Shown here in pieces: positions 34,881-64,000 of a stretch of 64,000 nt of DNA. The stretch's first letter is position 1; every line of letters starts with the position of its first letter. This stretch comes from Sphagnum compactum. Lineage: Eukaryota. A program made the translations under genes and the position numbers. The DNA is taken from contig OZ234494.1 of NCBI GenBank assembly GCA_965153455.1, positions 1,302,001 through 1,366,000 on the forward strand, written 5' to 3'. The notes under the pieces were generated by a model. The model saw only the letters and a list, made by a program, of their open reading frames with translations, did no database searches and was not told the DNA's origin.

Positions 34881-36535
34881 CGGATTGATTGCGGGGAAGG
34901 GGGGAAGGTGGAGACAACTAGGAGAGGCATTGTGGCGCGGGCTGGGGTGACAGAAGGGGGGGGAGGAGGAGGAAGAGGAGGAGGCGACCCCAGCAGAGAC
35001 GACCCCACATCGTTGAAAGACGGGGATCTGTCGTTGGGCTACGCGTACGCGCGCAACCTCCCTTCCACTGCTGCTGCTGCTCTCACCAACAACCCCATAC
35101 CCTGGGGTCGGCCCCCCCCAGTGTATGGCACGCACCACCACCATCACCGCGAAGTCTACCAGAGCCTATTGAGCCGAGGTGAGGAAGATCAGTATGGAGG
35201 AGGAGCGCATGGAGGAGCAGCTCCTCCTCCTCATGCTGCTTCTCCTCATGTAGTTCTTCACCATGGAGCACTGCATGGAGGAGCTCTTCAAGGGTACGAA
35301 GCCAGCTTGAAAAGAGAGAGTCATCAAAGAAGTGAAGACACAGCAGCAGGCCTTGCGGCCAACAATTTTGACGAGGAGGAAGAAGCGGAGCAGGAAGGTA
35401 GTAGCAATAGCAGCAGCGTGGGAAAGACCACTGCTGCAGACAGAGACAGAGACATCAACAACAACAACCCATCAGCTGCACAGAGCTGGGCACTGGCCGT
35501 GAGGGAGGGAGACGAAGAAGACGCAGCAGCAGCAGCAACGCAGGGCATGAATGTACAAAGCCTGCAACAGCACAATCCCGCACACGCGGGCCCATCTGAT
35601 CCCGACAACCATCTACACCTTCATGGTATCTATTCATCTATTTATGCACTCCCCGCCTCTTGAGAGGATTGATTCTGCTACCTTACAGTTGTTCTCGTCT
35701 GCAGCTTCTCTGTGTGCCGGATTCCTGCTGCTTTGGGTAGCAGCGGGCTTGGTTTAGGTCTGAGATTTTATTATTGTTATTATTATTTTCTTCTGTTGTG
35801 GGTTTTGTGCAAATTCCTTCTTTCTTTCACAAATGGATTCACGTCTGATGCTTCTCTTTCTGTCCGATGTTTCTCTTTCTCTCTTTCACAAATGGGTTCA
35901 CGTCTGATGGGTCTGATGCTTTTCTTTCTTTCTTTCTTTATTTGACAAATGGGTTCACGTCTGATCGGTCTGGTGTTTGTCTTTCTTTCTGTCTTTTACA
36001 AATGGGTTCACGTCTGGTGTTTGTGTTTCTTGATTGGGGGGCGGGGGGGATGAAGAACCACGTGCGGAAGAGCTGTGGGGAGCAACAGTAGGAGGAGGAG
36101 GAGGAGGGAAGGTGAAGGAGGGAGTGGTTGGGCAGGGGCAGGGACAGCAAGTAGTAGGAGGAGGAGCAAGTAGTACGGGAACAACAACAGGATCATCAGC
36201 GTGTCAAGAATGCGGAAACCAAGCGAAGAAAGATTGCTCGTACCAGCGATGTCGAACGTGTTGTAAGAGTCGAGGGTTTGAGTGTACCACGCATCTCAAG
36301 AGTACTTGGGTTCCTGCAGCTAAGCGGCGAGAACGACAGGCGGCTGAATCTGCTGCTGCCGCTGCCGCCTCCGCTGGCCTTCTTCTTCGTCCCAAGTCCA
36401 AGCGCGCTCGATCCCTCGTCGTTGCCAATTCTCTCACCTATACTTCTGCAACGTCTCCCAGAGGAGGCTCTGCTGATCTCAACTCCGCTCATCTCTCTGC
36501 TGCTCCTCATCCTTCTCAACCAAGTAAACTCTCTG

Positions 36536-36587
<52 letters not shown>

Positions 36588-39500
36588 CATTGCATTGCAT
36601 TGCATTGAATTGACTTTCATCTGTCTCAACCAAGTAAAAAAAATGGCTATTATTCCCATCTTTCTCTCATCACACATTGAATTTCTTCATCTCCAATTTC
36701 ATATCTTTCATGTCTCCAATTTCTTGTGTTCCAAAAGGGGTTTCAAACAGCGTAACAATTCCATCATGCATCAAAATTCATCTCCAATTTCATATGTTCC
36801 AATAGGGGTTTCAAATACGGTAAATGTTCTATCCAACTTCAGTGTTCAATTTTGATTTGTGCAATTTTTTTTATGTGTTGGACACGACTATGTGTGATTA
36901 TCCTTTAAAGTGACGCATCTCACTGCATGTCATCCATCTCAATGAAGTAAAATCACTATCTCCATCTCTGGTGATGCATTGAATTTCATCTCCAGTTTCA
37001 TATGTCCCAAAAGGGTTTCAAATAGGTTAAAAGTTTCATCCAACTTTTGTGTTCAATTTTGATTTCTTCAATTTTATCAATGTTTTATGTTTCGGACAAG
37101 ACTGTGTGTGATCATCCTTCTCAGCTTATTCCTTTCTTTTGCCACATGCTGGTTTTCACAATTGGGTCTTTTTTTCATAATTGCATCTTGATCGTGGCAT
37201 GGTAGGTTGGTAATCCAAGTATCTGTGTTCCCAAAGGGGTTCAATGGGGTCAAGGTTCCATCCATCTTTTGTGTTCATTCTGACTTTTGCATTTTCTTTG
37301 ATGCTTTTATGTTTTGGACAAGACTCTGTGATCATCCTTCTCAGCCTATTCCTTTCACTATCGAGTCTTTGTTCATAATTGGATCTTTGGCTTGGCATGC
37401 TAGGTTGATTGCTCTCTCAGCCAGCTTCTGACTTTGTGAGATTGATGTGGCATTATTTTTGGGGAGGTTTAGAAGTTCCCCACACAGATATGTTCTGGGG
37501 GTGCTGGTGTATTTTGATCAGGTGTTTAGTTTAAGGTTTTTCAGAGCTGCTTGCCTGTGGACTTTGGAAGCTATGGATGGGAAATTATTTTACCAATATA
37601 AGAAAAAAGATGGAAAGGCAACCTAAGGGTATCTCACCATGCATGGATAAACACTGCTATATATCTCAATGAGTATCTTCCGTTACTAGGAATTTTTTTC
37701 CCTGTTTTCTCTGGTGCAGTGGTTTTGTTATTATGGTTCATATTTTGTTTTTCCTTCCAGTCAAGTTGTCCCTGGGTGTTTGTTCTCATTGAGTGATGTG
37801 TTATGGAGTGTGCTGCTATAGTGGTTCATGTCATGCACTGCCTTGAGATGACAACAGTGTTTGTGCTCTTTTATGGAAGGAGATTTCTTGATACTTGTAA
37901 AGAACTCAGAGAAATTTCCTAGTGTATGTGGAGGGCACTTATAGGTGTAAGATCCCTTCCACTCTGAAGGACAAGGTGTAACAACCCTCCCCCTCCTCCT
38001 ACACTTCATGTCTTTGCATGTTTAAGTTCATGATAACATTCGCCTTGCAATCTATGATGGGTGAAGCCCACAGGTGAGGTACATTGCCAACATGCAGGCT
38101 GAACTTGCCTACTACCTCATCCTAGGCCCCTTCTTTTGGGAATGCCCCCATCCCGGGTCCTTTAGCCTACACATGAAACTTATGCTCTTTGTGAAGGAAA
38201 TCAAGTTGCCTGATGTGAGTTGTGGGAAAAAAAACCAAAGTAACCCTTTTGATCCCTGTCTTGATTATGGTTTAAGGGTTTTAAGCCTTGTTTTGCTGCT
38301 CTACCAGGTTAGTGGTTACACTGGATTATACCCACTGTAGTAGGGAGCTGATGAAGTCAGTGTGGAAGTTGTGATAGATAAGTTGCTGTCATACATGTTA
38401 CTGTTGATGGTTCCTGAACAAGTGAGAGACTGTTGTTTTTGTTCATCTTGAAAGTGTTTTTGTGTCTTTTGCTTTTTTGGTTCTGTGTTCTTCTGTTTTC
38501 TTCCCAGTTCTGTAAGTCCTTATCTGGAGTCTTTCTTTGACTTAAAAGGAAAAGTTTCAACCTTGTTCTGGCATTCTTAATTGTGAATATGGAGATTTTT
38601 TGATGCTCATGAGAATTATCATTATTTTTACTGCTCTAACTGCAAACCTTATGTTCTAAAAATTGCCCAGCATCAGCAAAGGGTGGACTTCCTCCAGAAG
38701 TGAGAGCGCAGGCACTCTTTAAGTGTGTGAGATTAATGGGTGTGGAGGATGGGGAGAATGAGTTTGCATACCAGGCAACTGTCAAAATTGGGGGCCACAT
38801 TTTCAAAGGTGTGTTGTACGATCAAGGTCTCGACAGTGGCCAAGTCGCTGCTGCACCATCATCATCACTGGGCGACTTACAGCTTGGTGGCAGCCGAGGT
38901 GGCATGCCATCATCTTCTGCCCTGATTGACCCCGCATCTTTGTATGTCTCTGGAAGTGCACTCTTGGGAGGTCAGCCCCTTGACTTAACAGTTCAAACAC
39001 GTCTTTATTCGTCATCTTCTCATTTTCTGTGTGTGTGTGAGAAAACCCAATTATATGACAGCAATTTCTGAATGAATGATGTTTCTGGAGATTCACAAAG
39101 GGTGGGTGTTTTCTGTTTCTGGGTGGTTGGGATGAATGCAGCTTTGCGATAAGTAAAAAGTACATCGGGGGTGGCAGCAGATGAAGGGATTTTTTTGGGT
39201 GAAACATTTTCCGAATCAGTCCTGGTTCCTTTGTGCAGGGAAGTAGTTTTGTTTGCACCAAAAATTTGTAGAGGAGCAGTTGTTATGCTAGGTTTTGTTT
39301 CTGCAGACCAAGAAACTGGAATTTTTTTTGTTTGGGGGGTCAACTTTGTGCCAAATTGTGTCCATCAAATTTTGAAAACTTTTTGTTCATTTTTCTCACT
39401 CAACCCTGAAAATGATTGCCCATGGGTTGAGTGAACGAAATGAATGACTACTGAGAGTTTGCTTTGTTGCCTTTGGGGGTTGATTCAGGGTAATGTAATC

Positions 39501-57339: not shown

Positions 57340-59006
57340 AACATTTTCATATGGTAGAAACAATGCATGACATTATTTTACAAGCCATAATGATGGTTGT
57401 GTAAAAAAGTCAGTTCCTTGTTGTAAGTTGTGATGAGGTCACTACTGTAGACAACCAAAGCTAGTTGTCTATTCATGTATATGTATTTGAAGAATGGAAG
57501 ATAATCCCCATACTCTTTAACTTGCATAAAATTGTGGATGGAGAGATTTTCAAAACAACTAGACCTTCATCAATATAGTTTGGTGAAAATTGGAGATGTG
57601 ATTAAAACAAACATGGCCAACAAGCTCATGTATTTTGGAACAAATGGAGTGATAATATTTTAAGGTGTCAAAATGGGAGTTACCACATAGCTGGTGCAAA
57701 AACATGTTCCATTTGTGAATGATGTGTGTTGCATAACACACCACATAAACAGAGCCATTCAAACTTTGGATGGTTTGAGGTTGTTGGGCAAGATTGAAAT
57801 TCCACTTGCATTAATGTATAACTACTTCGCTCACAACCTTAAACACCATTTGGAAATATATAAGTTTGTTGAGTGCAATAGCAACAAGATCTTAAAGAAC
57901 ATCAAGACCCAATGGATGTCTATGTTGTCACCTTCCAAGAGAGTGTTGAATGAGTATCAAATGTTGGTTGTGAAAATGGTTGAAGACAATGTAAGCATTG
58001 TCATTATTAAAGCTAACTATGAACTTCTTTATGATGTGGAAAGATTGTTGGGTCTAGCTTGTGTCCTTCCCTTGTTGGAGTTGGTGCAAGGATTAATCAA
58101 ATTTGCATAAAGGTGTGACAGTTTCATATGTGACTTTATGTTGTTCTTAAGGTTTGTGAAGTAGACCTATATAATTTATATTATGATCTTAAAAAAAAGT
58201 ATCCATCTTCACACTTTGGTGCTTTCATTGATCTTGTTAAGCACATCCATGACCAATTGTGCTTATGCCGGTGGAAGGAACCTACCACCTAGATTGAATA
58301 CATTGTTTTTTTTTTGGAGGTAAACTTTATAATATGCTACATTTCACCAACGCAACCACAATGGAGGTGGGCCTTGTAACTAGGGAAATTAGGGCTAGAA
58401 TTGTGGATTCTATGAAGCAACAATGTTTTATAATAACTGCAAGTTTGATAATTAAATTGAAATGGTGATTTTTAACATGGAAGTTGTTGAATGCAATTGG
58501 GGTGATCTACCTTCAATATTGGCTTGTAGAGGTTGAAATTACGTTTCAGGAATACATAAGGCTTATTCAAATACATTTTGGGCACAACCAAGGCATGGGG
58601 TACTTTCGGTACATTTAGTGGGCCAATGATCAACCTTATTTTGCTTGATCAACAATCATTTTTTTTCAAACTAACAATGTAAAATCATTGCCAAAATGCC
58701 ATGTTGCTTTTCCATGATTGCAACCTAACCACTTGATTGTGAGAAAAACTTGGGTCTAGGGGGGTTCTAAATCAACATCTTTTAGAGCGATTGAAGTTGG
58801 TCAAATTATGCATGATTATGGTGTTGGGCAACATGGAGGACAGACACATTTTCTTGGATATAACATTCATCAAAACAAAGTTAAGGAATCACCTAATTAT
58901 GCATCTAAACCTTGTCGTACAAATGTATGCACAATTTTTTTGCAAACTTGAAACCTTTCCTCTTTACACAACAATGTGCAAGTGGAATGAAAACCAAGTG
59001 TGGTAA
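57340..59006 (+). pseudogene. Decayed hAT-superfamily (ZNF862-like) transposase: catalytic core and C-terminal dimerisation region
   Basis: Translation across stops and frameshifts gives FLVVSCDEVTTVDNQS*LSIHVY (first catalytic D), C-x2-HH-x-N (CITHHINRA), KILKNIKTQWMSML (T-R-W-like motif) and MIMVLGNMEDRHIF...IKTKLRNHL (hAT dimerisation-like). Confidence 0.85.
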
Positions 59007-59430
59007 ACCATGGACGCCTATCTTTATAATTTGGGATTATGTTGTTGCCAATCTATTCACAAGTTGAACATCGATAACTAAATGCATTGAAGGCCAAATT
59101 TTGTTAGTGCAAGTGCAAGTTGTTGGTTTAATACCAATAAATATTTAGCTATCCAAAATATTGCAATGAAATCTCCCCACAACCTCCCATACTAGCACTT
59201 AATGCCATCAAACTATTTAAATATAATTTTTTGTATTTGATTAGGTTTCTTGTTTGCCCCAATGAGCTTCTAAATCTATCTTTATGTGCCCATATTCACA
59301 ATCAACAATCCTCTTTTTATTTCTCCATTTGAATGTTTGTGTATTCATATTTTAAATTTTTTTTCTATATGATTGTCTTTGTATTCAAATGGGAATACTC
59401 CTAAATACCTTGGACAATCTATTGTTCATG

Positions 59431-59730
59431 CAGCATGTTACTATTGTTTTTTAGCATGTTTTAGCTGCTGTTATAGAGAGGAAAATTGCATTGGTGGGTG
59501 ATGCTTGTTCTAAACCTCCTATTACTATTAGATCTCACGATTTGCATGTAGGCAACATTAGAAGGGCCGTGGGTGAGATAACTTCCTACCACGAAAGAGA
59601 CTAGCTCTCTCCCTTTTTTTGGTTCCTACGAGCTATGCGTCTTTTGGCCTTTCTTTGGCCTTCCCTTTTTGTCTCCCCTATGATGGTTCCAGCCATTGTT
59701 CTTTTATTGGATTTTTGTGAGTGTTTTTCC
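59431..59730 (+). mobile_element. 5'-truncated 3' end of a non-LTR retrotransposon (CRE/RLE-type-like ORF C-terminus plus pyrimidine-rich 3' UTR)
   Basis: QHVTIVF*HVLAAVIERKIALVGDACSKPPITIRSHDLHVGNIRRAVGEITSYHERD* begins with a decayed version of the QRVSIALQR-x-x-A terminal motif of CRE-clade elements, followed by a T/C-rich tail. Confidence 0.55.
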
Positions 59731-62690
59731 TATTAAGCAACAAGTTCCTACCAAGGATGCTTCCACTAGAATTACTTCAATCTAAGACCCTACAATCATC
59801 AACAATGCATTTGTCATGATTCTTTTCCTAACCAACCAACAAGAGTGTCAAGATGCAACACATCACAAATGATGGGCTAGGTACATCCCTACACAATTGT
59901 TTGTTTATGAAAGGATTTGACCTTCCATTCTACCAATGAAGTGACCATTTGAGCAAATCCAAAGAAGCTATTATTCTAGTGGTAGAGAGGACAATGTAAA
60001 CAGCTAGAAGTAGAGAGCTTTGCTATGGTTGATGACTTGTAGAACAATAATCAAAAATTGATGAAACAAACTAAGATCTACCAAGTTAGATGAAATAACT
60101 TTGCAATCTTGGTCAAGGGTTTGTTCCAAGTATCTTATGCTTTTATGCCTACTCTTCACGTTATTCAGTAGCCACAAAAGTTATTGTGTTCTAGCTCCTG
60201 TCACCCCCTCTCTTGCCTTACCTCATTTGTACCTCATTTGTAGTAACCCCACATATAGAAGCATGAAATTTTCTATAGCCACATGAACCTAAAACATTCA
60301 TATAGTTCTCACCACCACGTTATGAACAAAGACTAATACACCTATTTACTTCTAAAACTAATTAATCTTTGTGTAGCCACTTGGATTCACCAGCCCTAAA
60401 ACAAATATGCACATTGGCAACTCAATATGAACGCCAACACCAGTTGATAAGTTACCCATCCTTGACTGAACAACAATCATACTGCTAAAGCACTGTCTAC
60501 AAATGCATTGATACCACCTGAAACCCCATGCTCACTCCCATTTTGCCACACAACAAACCCCCAAAGTACCACTTCACAAAATCATCTTCACAACTTAATT
60601 AGTTACAGCGTCTCCTGAAAATGCAACCAATGATAGAATGTAGCAGAAGCATGAACACAAAACACATCAACTACCCCAAGATAGAAACACAAAAACTCAA
60701 TGCACACTCACAATTGCAGATACTAAACCCATAGCAAGGATTCACATTTTCTTATTGCCCTATCTGCTCTCCTCATTGAAGTAATGTGGACAAAAGCAAG
60801 TTTTACACAAGCATTATAATGCACCTCTTATGTTTTTATTCTTCATACTAACATTTCTGCAGCCAGAACTCCTAAACAGGTGCTACATGCATTTTCTAAA
60901 CTGCAAGTTCCACCTTAAGAAACTTCTCCCACATCCCCAACACTAGAATCAATGTTACAAAACCTTATCAACAATCAACAAACATAACAGCATAACCTGG
61001 TTATGTACAAACAACAGATCTTTGAAGACCTTATAACAACACTTGCAACCCATCCAAACTTCATCCTGCACACGAAACATGGCACAGCCACAAGGTACCA
61101 ATCACTCCAAACAACACCCCAAGTTGTTGAGCACACCACAAAGCACCAAAAAATGTTACTGTCAGTCAATTCAAACCTCTGCATAATGGATGTCATCACA
61201 ATCAACAGTGTCTTCTGCACAAGCACCAAAACCCTGAAAACAGACAGGAAATCCTGTGGCATTCTCACTTCAGTCAATTCCTTCATCCTTCCCCATTCAT
61301 CACATTTCCTTTCACGTCACACTGGTGATATGTTGAAAGATTGTTCTGGCTATACTGGACTTGGGAGAAAAGCAATATTTTATGAAGATCGCATTCAGAG
61401 ATGAAAGTGCTAGGTGACACTTGTTAAGCACAAAGATGGTAGGTGCTTGCTGTGGGGAGGACTGCAGATCAAGGCCTGTTTGGATGCTCAAGTCAATTCC
61501 CACTTATTTTTCTTCAATGTGCTTACAACAATGGGGAGTGAACAACCCATGTCCCAACCTCGTCTGAAGACCATTTGGGCTTGCAAATCTTTCCAAGCCC
61601 ACATAACTCAATGGCAGTTGTATCACCTAGAACCTGCATGAACATTCCAAGCTGTTTTGCTGCTGGTTTTGACATGATACTGGATCTAAGCTCAATGTAA
61701 CAGAACCTGTTCCTTCTTTAGAATCTTGAAGAAGCTTGTCCGTCACATGATAAACTGCACATCAACTATCAGTTGAACAATGATCGTGAGAAGGAAAGCC
61801 TCAGCCACTCTAAAAACAAATTGCCAGAAAGCTAGCAAACTTGAAAATGCAAGATGAATCAAGATCCCAGGAAAGCATGACCTCTTATGATGTCATTTGC
61901 AGCAACCTTTCTCCTTTCCCATGGAGAATTGGGTCAGGAGCCTGAACAAACATTGCAACAAAAAGGAAAACTCATCCTCTGAAAGTTTGTTCCTTTGCAT
62001 ATTCCAACCACAACAGAGAATGCAAACACATACTCAGACAAGGAAGATTGTGTGATATCTCCAGGCTACATGGATTGTAGAGAACATCCTTAAGAGACTC
62101 CAAAAGGAACTTCATGTTTGTGAAGTATGCATTTTAGGGTTGAAGGGTTTGCTGGTAAAAGAAGTCACAAATCCAAAATTCTGATCCTCTGGAATGGAAT
62201 GGCAGCAGAAGAGCCCAAGCTGGGGGATAGTTGCATCTGCCTCCTTCCATGTTTCATTTTGATTGTCAGAGTTTGGGGACCAATTTCTTCCTCAAACGCT
62301 TGCAAAAATGACAAAAGATGTAGCTAGCTACCTGAGCGACAAGACAGGAGCTGAAGGTCCAATTTCCAGTCCTTAAAGAGCTTCTTCAGAATCAAGAACA
62401 CCAGACACTAAGGACATGTCTGAAGATGTGAAAAGCAACAACTCCTTAAATAATGCAAAAATTCCTTACACAATGCGTGTGCAACAAACGAAGAAGTCAT
62501 AACAGAATCACAAGAGAAAAGAAGACGGGACAGCATAGAAATGTTCATTCTAAGACCACAAACACTACAAGAAGATAACACATTGCCAAAAAAAAACCCT
62601 TACCCTACAACATGCACATTCCTTCAAGAATTGAAGAAAGCCGAAGAAGCAGGACTTGTACTGAAAGTATCTGAGACAGAGAGCAGCTAG

Positions 62691-63977
62691 TTATCGCCAA
62701 CGTCCTACTCTCTCGCGCTCATGCGCAGACTCGCTATACTTGCTCCAGCAGTAATCTTTGTTAAGAGGCACCTTGCCAATTTTATTGCCAGAAAACGGAA
62801 AGTCGCCAAAGCTGCTCCTCAACACTCCCCTCAGCTGTGTCTTGCTCAGAAAGGTAAGGACGCCTGTGTTGACGTTGCCTTCATAATCAAGCTGGATCTC
62901 ACCCTCTCCAGTTTCTCGGCCTCGCCATGAGAACTCAACGTCCTCGGCCGGAAATTTGGATGATGATAATGGAGGTTCCGTGGTGGAGCGAAGAATGCCT
63001 TTCAGAATCCCCATCCGGAAGTTTGCACACAGCAGGCGAGAGGTAGTCATCACAGCTGAGGGGTTCTGTTTTTTCTTCTGGTTGCTTTGATCATCGTCAG
63101 AATGACAACCCGAGCTGTAATCCGAGCAGCCTTCTTCTTCTTCTTCTTCCTCTGGTAGAGGCCTGTGGAAAAAAATGGACATCCTTCTATCGGCTTTTCG
63201 GTACTCCTTGTCCATTTTGCTGCAATCAATCGACCACTCACCCTCTACATCCACAAACTTTCCCTTCCCACCTGCTTCACATTCCTTGCGCATCGCTTCC
63301 GTCTTCTTCCTCTTGGCATTTGTCTCCTCATCTTCCCACAGCTTGCGCTTCTTCTCAATCTCACTCTTGCGGTCCCAGACAGCTGCTCGGTTCTTACCAA
63401 CCACAATCCAACGGGCACCAGCGTCACCAGGAGCATCAGCACTAATTGTGTGCAAACCCAACTCTTCAGCAGCTTCATGTACTCGTTGTCTTTGTTGGAT
63501 CTGAAGCACCAACACCTCTTCCTTCCCCGTTTCACCAAACTTCTCGCGAAGAAATCGATGGCTATCGAATTCAGCCTTCGCATTGTCGTCCAACCTAAGG
63601 TACTGCTTATCCCTCGCCTTCGCATTCTCTAGTAAGAACCGCCGATTAAGCTCCAGTTCAAGCTGAACCAGATGCTCCGGAGGACCTTGCAAGCCATTGG
63701 AGAGGGCAGTTTTGAGGCTATCACTCAGAGTGGCGATGGTGCTCGCAGATTTGATCTTGCACCCATACAGTTGCAGTTGAGCGAGCCACCAATCTTTCGA
63801 TCGCTTCAATGGGGTTGCCGTCGTGCTTTTCCGCTTAGGAAAAAGCCAGGCATTCAGGTTGTCGATTGTCTCTCGACATTGGCCCTTGTACGTAAGACCT
63901 GCACCAGAGCACTCAAAGGGAGGCGAAGAAAGGGGTTTGATAACAATAGGTTCAAGCATGGGAAGGCTCAAATCCAT
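62691..63977 (-). CDS. Intronless 428-aa hypothetical protein with a central R3H-like segment and an acidic low-complexity linker; motifs resemble uncharacterised fungal proteins
   Basis: Longest ORF in the window, clearly GC-richer than its flanks, with a strong gccATGG start context. Contains QRQRVHEAAEELGLHTIS...RWIVVGK (R-x3-H), N-terminal WWLAQLQLYG, and C-terminal FSWRGRETGEGEIQ...N.G.L.F...WSKYSESAHERERVGRWR. Confidence 0.85.
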   Translation of the reverse strand: MDLSLPMLEPIVIKPLSSPPFECSGAGLTYKGQCRETIDNLNAWLFPKRKSTTATPLKRSKDWWLAQLQLYGCKIKSASTIATLSDSLKTALSNGLQGPPEHLVQLELELNRRFLLENAKARDKQYLRLDDNAKAEFDSHRFLREKFGETGKEEVLVLQIQQRQRVHEAAEELGLHTISADAPGDAGARWIVVGKNRAAVWDRKSEIEKKRKLWEDEETNAKRKKTEAMRKECEAGGKGKFVDVEGEWSIDCSKMDKEYRKADRRMSIFFHRPLPEEEEEEEGCSDYSSGCHSDDDQSNQKKKQNPSAVMTTSRLLCANFRMGILKGILRSTTEPPLSSSKFPAEDVEFSWRGRETGEGEIQLDYEGNVNTGVLTFLSKTQLRGVLRSSFGDFPFSGNKIGKVPLNKDYCWSKYSESAHERERVGRWR

Positions 63978-64000
63978 GGCTAGTACTCACAGTCGCACGC

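Follow-up and report, generated by a model that had tools for sequence, protein, structure and literature searches.

The window, by which we mean the whole 64,000-nucleotide stretch of Sphagnum compactum DNA analysed here, carries close to one edge a 428-codon open reading frame (ORF) that is a genuine Sphagnum gene, transcribed and conserved. Taking origin and function together, we lean modestly towards the explanation that this gene came from a fungus, was acquired once by the land-plant ancestor, and encodes a putative nuclear adaptor that binds nucleic acids. The features on which the analysis turns, with domains as predicted from the model and from relatives, are as follows:

62691..63977, minus strand: single-exon coding sequence P0001, 428 aa (ORF, RNA contigs, dN/dS)
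63687..63884, minus strand: SAP-like domain (helix-extended-helix), residues ~32-97, with the WWxAQ motif (Pfam in relatives and fold)
63828..63839, minus strand: PKRK basic cluster, residues 47-50, candidate nuclear localisation signal (NLS; conservation in plant rows)
63348..63593, minus strand: R3H-like domain, residues ~129-210, with R163-x3-H167 (Pfam in relatives and fold)
63276..63389, minus strand: long charged helix, residues 197-234 (38 residues), linking the R3H-like domain to the barrel (DSSP on the model)
62769..63266, minus strand: eight-stranded up-and-down beta-barrel, residues ~238-403 (model, Z scores, conservation)
63042..63161, minus strand: acidic loop of variable length between barrel strands 2 and 3, residues 273-312 (pLDDT ~50, charge -8)
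62697..62747, minus strand: C-terminal helices, residues 411-427, ending in the conserved R426-W427 (model, conservation)
34,881-39,071: SHI/STY-family gene, the plant marker of the window (DUF702 in two exons)

A transcribed and conserved gene of Sphagnum

The ORF runs from an ATG at 63977 to a TAA at 62691 on the minus strand with 428 codons and no internal stops, and among the window's 25 stop-to-stop frames with at least 130 aa none comes near it in length (431 aa versus 273 aa for the runner-up). Its ATG lies 23 nt inside the window edge, with an in-frame stop three codons upstream that is also found in the metagenome contig L003, and the moss orthologues begin at the same position as the Sphagnum ORF; the upstream stop and the shared start indicate that the ORF is whole and not cut by the edge. 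RNA contigs cross it unspliced, confirming the intact single-exon ORF of a preliminary description made from the sequence, and all motifs quoted there are present in the translation: WWLAQLQLYG (residues 63-72), PEHLVQLELEL, WRGRETGEGE (residues 351-360) and the C-terminal YSESAHERERVGRW. Upstream of the ATG, past the window edge, L003:5066-5162 has both a GTATGT donor and a tract rich in pyrimidines that ends in CAG, which suggests a 97-nt intron in the 5' UTR; if real, the transcript would not be entirely intronless. On the 3' side of the stop, positions 61,262-62,390 are richer in GC (42-44%) and covered by RNA contigs from the runs X8/X9 and X12; the six frames of this segment are full of stops and give no Pfam matches, and the segment could represent an extended 3' UTR or the remains of a gene.

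The suspicion that the ORF is a fungal contaminant or the product of a chimeric assembly could draw on its single exon, its position at the window edge and a GC content above that of its flanks, but we regard this as next to impossible. The gene is present on chromosome-size Sphagnum contigs of four species (24-36 Mb, orthologues 96-98% identical), and it clusters with plants in the trees described below, not with fungi. Contig L003 is collinear with positions 57,350-64,000 of the window (~6.7 kb) in four blocks of 86-96% identity, and one contig from the run X19, which covers all 30 bins, spans 60,194-63,121; both join the gene to its downstream flank, and both carry other alleles than the window. 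The nearest 90% cluster has 37 members, and among the 15 listed the seven with a species name are all Sphagnum (jensenii, troendelagicum, balticum and magellanicum). The GC content of the ORF (50.2%, GC3 53.6%) exceeds that of the flank at 57-61 kb (33-38%) and comes close to the 51-54% found at 34-36 kb in the plant SHI/STY region, so that it gives no hint of foreign origin.

The stretch is present in 22 runs from 10 studies, seven of which are recorded as RNA. Contigs were mapped from three RNA runs (X8, X9 and X12) and from X19, whose type is not on record. X8 and X9 come from different studies and years yet show the same contigs and depths over the stretch; they are probably a single data set deposited twice, and because their contigs are identical we counted them as one. 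An X8 RNA contig runs continuously over 62,390-63,826 with no joint, most of the ORF is covered by X12 contigs, and no splice joint across the ORF occurs in any of the three RNA runs. Fifteen bins (57.0-59.1 and 59.8-61.2 kb) have no RNA contigs in these runs, yet are covered in X19. The ORF is thus transcribed, on the evidence of assembled contigs, from which strand and level are not readable. Compared with three Sphagnum-type loci (L001-L003), it shows 12-15 synonymous and 9-10 non-synonymous differences over ~290 and ~990 sites, a dN/dS of 0.19-0.22 from small counts and without a significance test. The gene is under purifying selection, small as the number of differences is.

Elsewhere in the window, DUF702 was found in two exons of the SHI/STY gene, at 36.0 and 38.6 kb (E 1e-30 and 1e-21); the statement that the ORF sits among intron-rich genes holds for this gene, the one for which it was checked. 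Frames tested within 7 kb of the ORF yielded no identifiable protein family. Broken frames at 57,691-58,110 and on to ~58,900 have no Pfam match and read, we presume, like a decayed hAT-type transposase, and positions 59,340-59,807 form a high-copy repeat in which the summed contig depth of X19 rises to 5,866 (against ~30 nearby), with many loose ends. Carriage of the gene by a mobile element was considered and rejected, as there are no terminal or long repeats at 56-64 kb and the fungal-type loci of the family have no shared neighbourhood.

Relatives, phylogeny and origin

A word-indexed search returned 24 proteins. An exhaustive one found 315 clusters at E ≤0.001; 150 of these were listed, and 30 clusters were looked up for organism. 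In mosses, Ceratodon purpureus encodes two paralogues, on chromosomes 3 and 11 (45% and 40% identity, E 1e-108 and 5e-86), and among the matches listed there is a liverwort orthologue from Riccia sorocarpa (E 9.7e-72) and a fern orthologue from Adiantum capillus-veneris (E 1.4e-53, on a 170 Mb contig), the evidence for vascular plants being this one named protein and one sister, P0071. Physcomitrium and Marchantia proteins are absent from the named matches of the search lists. Outside plants, all 11 of the 11 relatives with a species name are Dikarya; in alignment A2 (defined below), 94 rows are not from plants, and just 10 of them have an organism name. They come from Icmadophila, Trapelia, Xylona, Glonium, Vermiconidia and Discina/Maublancomyces, which are Ascomycota, and from Gloeophyllum (two), Neolentinus, Ceratobasidium and Vararia, which are Basidiomycota; the best named fungal match among those listed is that of Trapelia (E 8.6e-33). 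The likeness to an uncharacterised family of fungal proteins that the preliminary description proposed is thereby upheld. The three nearest Atlas clusters shown are 100% eukaryotic with Ascomycota commonest, and family copies in L018, L019 and L024 adjoin fungal-type genes, for example, those for Zn2Cys6 factors and Afi1. The nine fungal-type loci scanned are flanked by ordinary genes, with no neighbourhood common to them.

Neither the 30 clusters looked up nor the named rows include a named alga, animal, protist, seed plant or prokaryote; for algae and seed plants this absence was read from hit lists, not from a taxon-by-taxon search. Motif scans gave 76 pattern matches in GTDB genomes and 40 in viral contigs, none of which was confirmed in either set. 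No relatives turned up in the plasmids searched, and the phages yielded a single piece at 25% identity and E 0.6. When bacterial genomes were searched by profile in sets of 5, 401, 301 and 251, without a positive-control genome and with the last set overlapping another, there were 0, 0, 1 and 0 matches, and the sole match (L120, E 0.0012) was discarded as a 59-column piece of an unrelated frame at about chance level. Small bacterial beta-barrel proteins with a W-x-G-x-D-E-like strand exist; a search for shorter proteins carrying the barrel of the family member P0064 found none, leaving this bacterial lead without support.

Several members of the family are unusual in themselves. In P0070 from Gloeophyllum trabeum (667 aa), a species with at least two paralogues, the R3H-like module apparently occurs twice in tandem. 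An intact single-exon fungal-type copy at L015:7980-9365 lies alone in 17 kb of AT-rich DNA (30-39% GC) in which no other long frames were found. Judged by eye, the frame breaks in L004, L006 and L018 resemble single-base errors more than introns. Two full-length members, P0194 and P0107, are divergent, and P0194 has weak Pfam matches to SAP and R3H; the two could be protists and, if so, would bear on the origin of the family.

Alignment A2 comprises 107 of 202 proteins; short fragments, nearly identical sequences and a number of overlong or gap-rich rows were omitted. In a FastTree analysis of A2, 13 rows including all named plants fall into one clade (support 89). A more careful, unrooted tree was computed under the site-mixture model LG+C20+F+G4 from 43 rows (10 from the plant clade and 33 others spread over the clades, omitting P0194 and P0107 as long branches and P0062 as partial), and here the plant clade is supported at 98/95. 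Within it the order is (Adiantum + P0071), (Riccia, ((Sphagnum query + P0003), other mosses)), with all four nodes starred, which matches the expected order of plants. The preliminary description had proposed a transfer from a fungus to bryophytes; this must be corrected, as the Adiantum orthologue sits inside the plant clade and the gene is therefore not specific to bryophytes. The fern orthologue, together with a single plant clade of species-like branching, indicates that the gain most likely predates the split between bryophytes and vascular plants. What stands of the earlier reading is an intact, plant-resident gene of fungal type, and what changes is its timing, which moves back to the land-plant ancestor.

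We consider it probable that a single fungus-to-plant transfer was followed by vertical descent and patchy loss. The donor would have been a fungus of the Ascomycota or Basidiomycota, the home of the uncharacterised family; one transfer would have reached the common ancestor of bryophytes and vascular plants, and the gene would then have passed down by vertical descent in mosses, liverworts and ferns, while many lineages, seed plants apparently among them, would have lost it. Since the unrooted tree has a weak backbone and does not place the plants inside any fungal group, the direction of transfer is argued from the distribution of the family and from its greater depth and spread in fungi. 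Constraining the 21 ascomycete-clade rows to one group improves on the free tree by 0.36 lnL and is not rejected (p-AU 0.50), and the seven basidiomycete-clade rows already lie on one side of a weak branch (32/46).

Two other histories have to be weighed against a single Dikarya-to-plant transfer. That the tree shows no nesting within fungi speaks for a gene that is ancient in eukaryotes, retained by fungi and seedless plants but lost from other lineages, or for one from a third, unsampled donor such as a protist, an early-diverging fungus or a virus; most relatives have no species name, and the divergent P0194 and P0107 leave room for such a source. Strict vertical descent, however, would require very many losses, and neither in the clusters looked up nor in the named rows does an alga, animal, protist or seed plant appear by name, which also speaks against these alternatives; we judge them unlikely. 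Somewhat more doubtful still are two or more transfers from related fungi, one to bryophytes (or setaphytes) and one to ferns. Repeated acquisition by plants is reported for a metallophore gene (PMC12454661), the branch uniting the plants is short (0.18), and the AU test tolerates the fern pair with the 15-row ascomycete clade (p-AU 0.16), but this arrangement is 12.4 lnL worse, the plant clade is well supported under the site-mixture model and ordered like the plant tree, and the motif WLFPKRKNA is common to Adiantum and mosses. A single origin of the plant copies, as judged from these sequences, is thus favoured though not proven.

Predicted architecture and putative function

The AlphaFold model (mean pLDDT 90.3, pTM 0.69; 95.4 and 0.83 for the N-terminal 220 residues alone) predicts that the protein consists of a SAP-like domain, an R3H domain, a long helix and an eight-stranded calycin-type beta-barrel. 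The preliminary description had recognised the R3H-like module, which is borne out, and had missed the SAP-like domain and the barrel. At the level of primary structure, Pfam assigned no family to the query alone, NCBIfam gave two lone weak matches among the 107 members, which we attribute to chance, PADLOC gave none on 21 barrel rows, and the best match in a sequence search of solved structures was unrelated (E 0.038). Foldseek returned no match at E ≤0.001.

The two N-terminal domains are detected through relatives and fold, with structural scores (Z 5-7) in a range that the tool calls possibly commonplace. Pfam finds SAP in 8 of the 107 members (best E 2.3e-5), P0088 passing the curated cut-off (24.3 versus 23.9), and such matches map to query residues 65-92; the modelled region aligns with the SAP domain of Ku70 (Z 5.1, rmsd 2.2 over 51 residues) and with 8fn4_2 (Z 6.5, rmsd 2.6 over 59). 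R3H is found by Pfam in 14 of the 107 (E ≤0.05, best E 3.2e-8) and not in the query itself. The R163/H167 signature and a three-stranded sheet with two helices match solved R3H domains with moderate scores: SPAG7 (Z 6.2) and SMUBP-2 (Z 6.0), below a top row that is an uncharacterised Porphyromonas protein (Z 7.1), and, in Foldseek, 2lrr (prob 0.97, rmsd 2.7, E 0.17). The arginine of the signature is kept in 4 of the 13 plant rows and 54 of the 94 others, the histidine in 9 of 13 and 41 of 94. FPKRK occurs in 7 of the 13 plant-clade rows, including Adiantum, and a K-[RK]-[RQ]-K cluster in 11.

The barrel opens with a calycin-type G-x-W strand and contains the WRGRETGEGE hairpin (62898-62927), and it holds the most conserved positions of the family (G246, G327, W351, G353, F376, G384 and G397, each in at least 90% of the 107 members); W351, R352, G353, E355, E358, K399 and R426 are kept in plants and non-plants alike. 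In its acidic loop, Sphagnum copies differ by in-frame indels. Many eight-stranded barrels match it at Z 8.5-10.6, and outer-membrane, designed, avidin-like, Cap15 and GID4 barrels at Z 7-10.6, none of which stands out.

Two putative nucleic-acid-binding modules, NLS-like basic clusters and the lack of a recognisable catalytic domain point to a nuclear, non-enzymatic adaptor that binds nucleic acids, a putative role that we hold to be fairly probable. The SAP-like domain would tether the protein to DNA or RNA, the R3H domain would add affinity for single-stranded nucleic acid, and the long helix would act as a spacer between R3H and the barrel, whose conserved WRGxETGEGE hairpin and terminal R-W may bind a partner peptide or a small ligand. 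The R3H domain of IGHMBP2 is described as raising RNA affinity about tenfold while being insufficient alone (PMC3505976), and a booster of affinity beside another domain is in keeping with R3H and the SAP-like unit acting together. As the barrel stays conserved in copies whose R3H decays, the essential function probably lies in the ligand or partner site of the barrel, the core job that selection would have retained.

The main functional rival is a catalytic barrel, for example, a lyase or nuclease, which would act on nucleic acid or on a bound small molecule, with SAP and R3H delivering the substrate. Some enzymes have calycin-type barrels, the weaker structural matches (Z 6.0-6.4) include phenolic acid decarboxylase and Cyc15, and the barrel has conserved charged residues (R330, R352, E355, E358 and K399) as well as a conserved C252. 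None of these charged residues is invariant, however, the top natural structure matches include no enzyme, and no solved structure matches in sequence below E 0.03, so that we think catalysis improbable. It is far less likely that the barrel is a remote Cap15-type receptor for cyclic nucleotides and the protein a sensor in fungal or plant immunity, in which SAP and R3H would recognise nucleic acid that is foreign or aberrant, and the barrel a nucleotide second messenger; on this long shot, a fungal immune module would have been borrowed by the first land plants and dropped by seed plants. The top fold match in a viral library is a SMODS-associating 2TM beta-strand-rich effector (E 6.5e-3, prob 0.98), and the Cap15 structure 7n34 is the best soluble natural protein in the list (Z 9.2, rmsd 3.4, 102 aligned), but Cap15 ranks ninth, level with outer-membrane and designed barrels. 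A profile comparison with nine Cap15 domains aligns 26 columns at the G-x-W strand (hhalign probability 1.4%) with a score of 16.1 versus 15.7 for the best of 30 shuffles, PF18153 is absent from the Pfam matches of the 107 members, PADLOC finds none in the 21 rows, and no transmembrane segment is evident in sequence or model. We retain the non-enzymatic adaptor as the preferred role.

Known systems and significance

Each module has known counterparts from which the Sphagnum protein departs. It shares with R3H proteins (PF01424; IGHMBP2/SMUBP-2, SPAG7, PARN and KhpB) the small alpha/beta fold and R-x3-H, but it falls below Pfam thresholds and lacks a helicase, nuclease or KH partner domain, and most plant copies have lost the arginine. 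The helix-extended-helix of SAP proteins (PF02037; Ku70, PIAS1 and Hcc-1) lies at query residues 61-93, whereas here the plant copies of the unit are divergent, an extra helix and beta-hairpins come before it, and it is joined to R3H and the barrel. With calycin- and avidin-type barrels (Cap15 PF18153, streptavidin, GID4 and lipocalins) it has in common the up-and-down fold and the G-x-W strand (Z 7-9); the WRGxETGEGE hairpin, the acidic insert and the terminal R-W helix are its own, and no sequence homology was detected to these barrels.

Transfer from fungi to plants is a well-known kind of event; the domain architecture found here is undescribed. Fungal fruit-body lectins (PF07367) are reported from liverworts, mosses and ferns and not from seed plants, and on these accounts the land-plant ancestor acquired them by transfer and losses followed (PMC11906373, PMC12513842). 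Their distribution and the transfer reading are the same as for the Sphagnum gene, but they are defence lectins with tested activity, unlike a putative nuclear nucleic-acid binder, and we found no relation in sequence or fold. The moss gene macro2, traced to Mucoromycota (PMC7181705), and the KP4 genes of bryophytes, traced to ascomycetes (as cited in PMC11228847), are likewise fungal genes kept by bryophytes, macro2 being the nearest precedent for a regulatory rather than a metabolic gain; they differ in having other domains and a traced donor group, whereas the Sphagnum family has a fern copy. One survey counts ~20 well-supported fungus-to-plant transfers (PMC12448838) and another 1,809 transferred families with 90 events at the land-plant ancestor, many of them with unknown function (PMC12513842); the family may already be listed among these 1,809. 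We found no publications on it via the six locus tags of family members or in titles and the openings of abstracts, subscription papers being outside the scope of this search.

The present analysis provides a first domain map (SAP-like, R3H and barrel) for a family of at least 315 clusters without a Pfam model of its own. If the transfer holds, a probable nucleic-acid-binding regulator joins a short list of transferred genes made up mostly of enzymes, lectins and toxins, and its acquisition would date gene exchange between plants and fungi to before the split of bryophytes and vascular plants.
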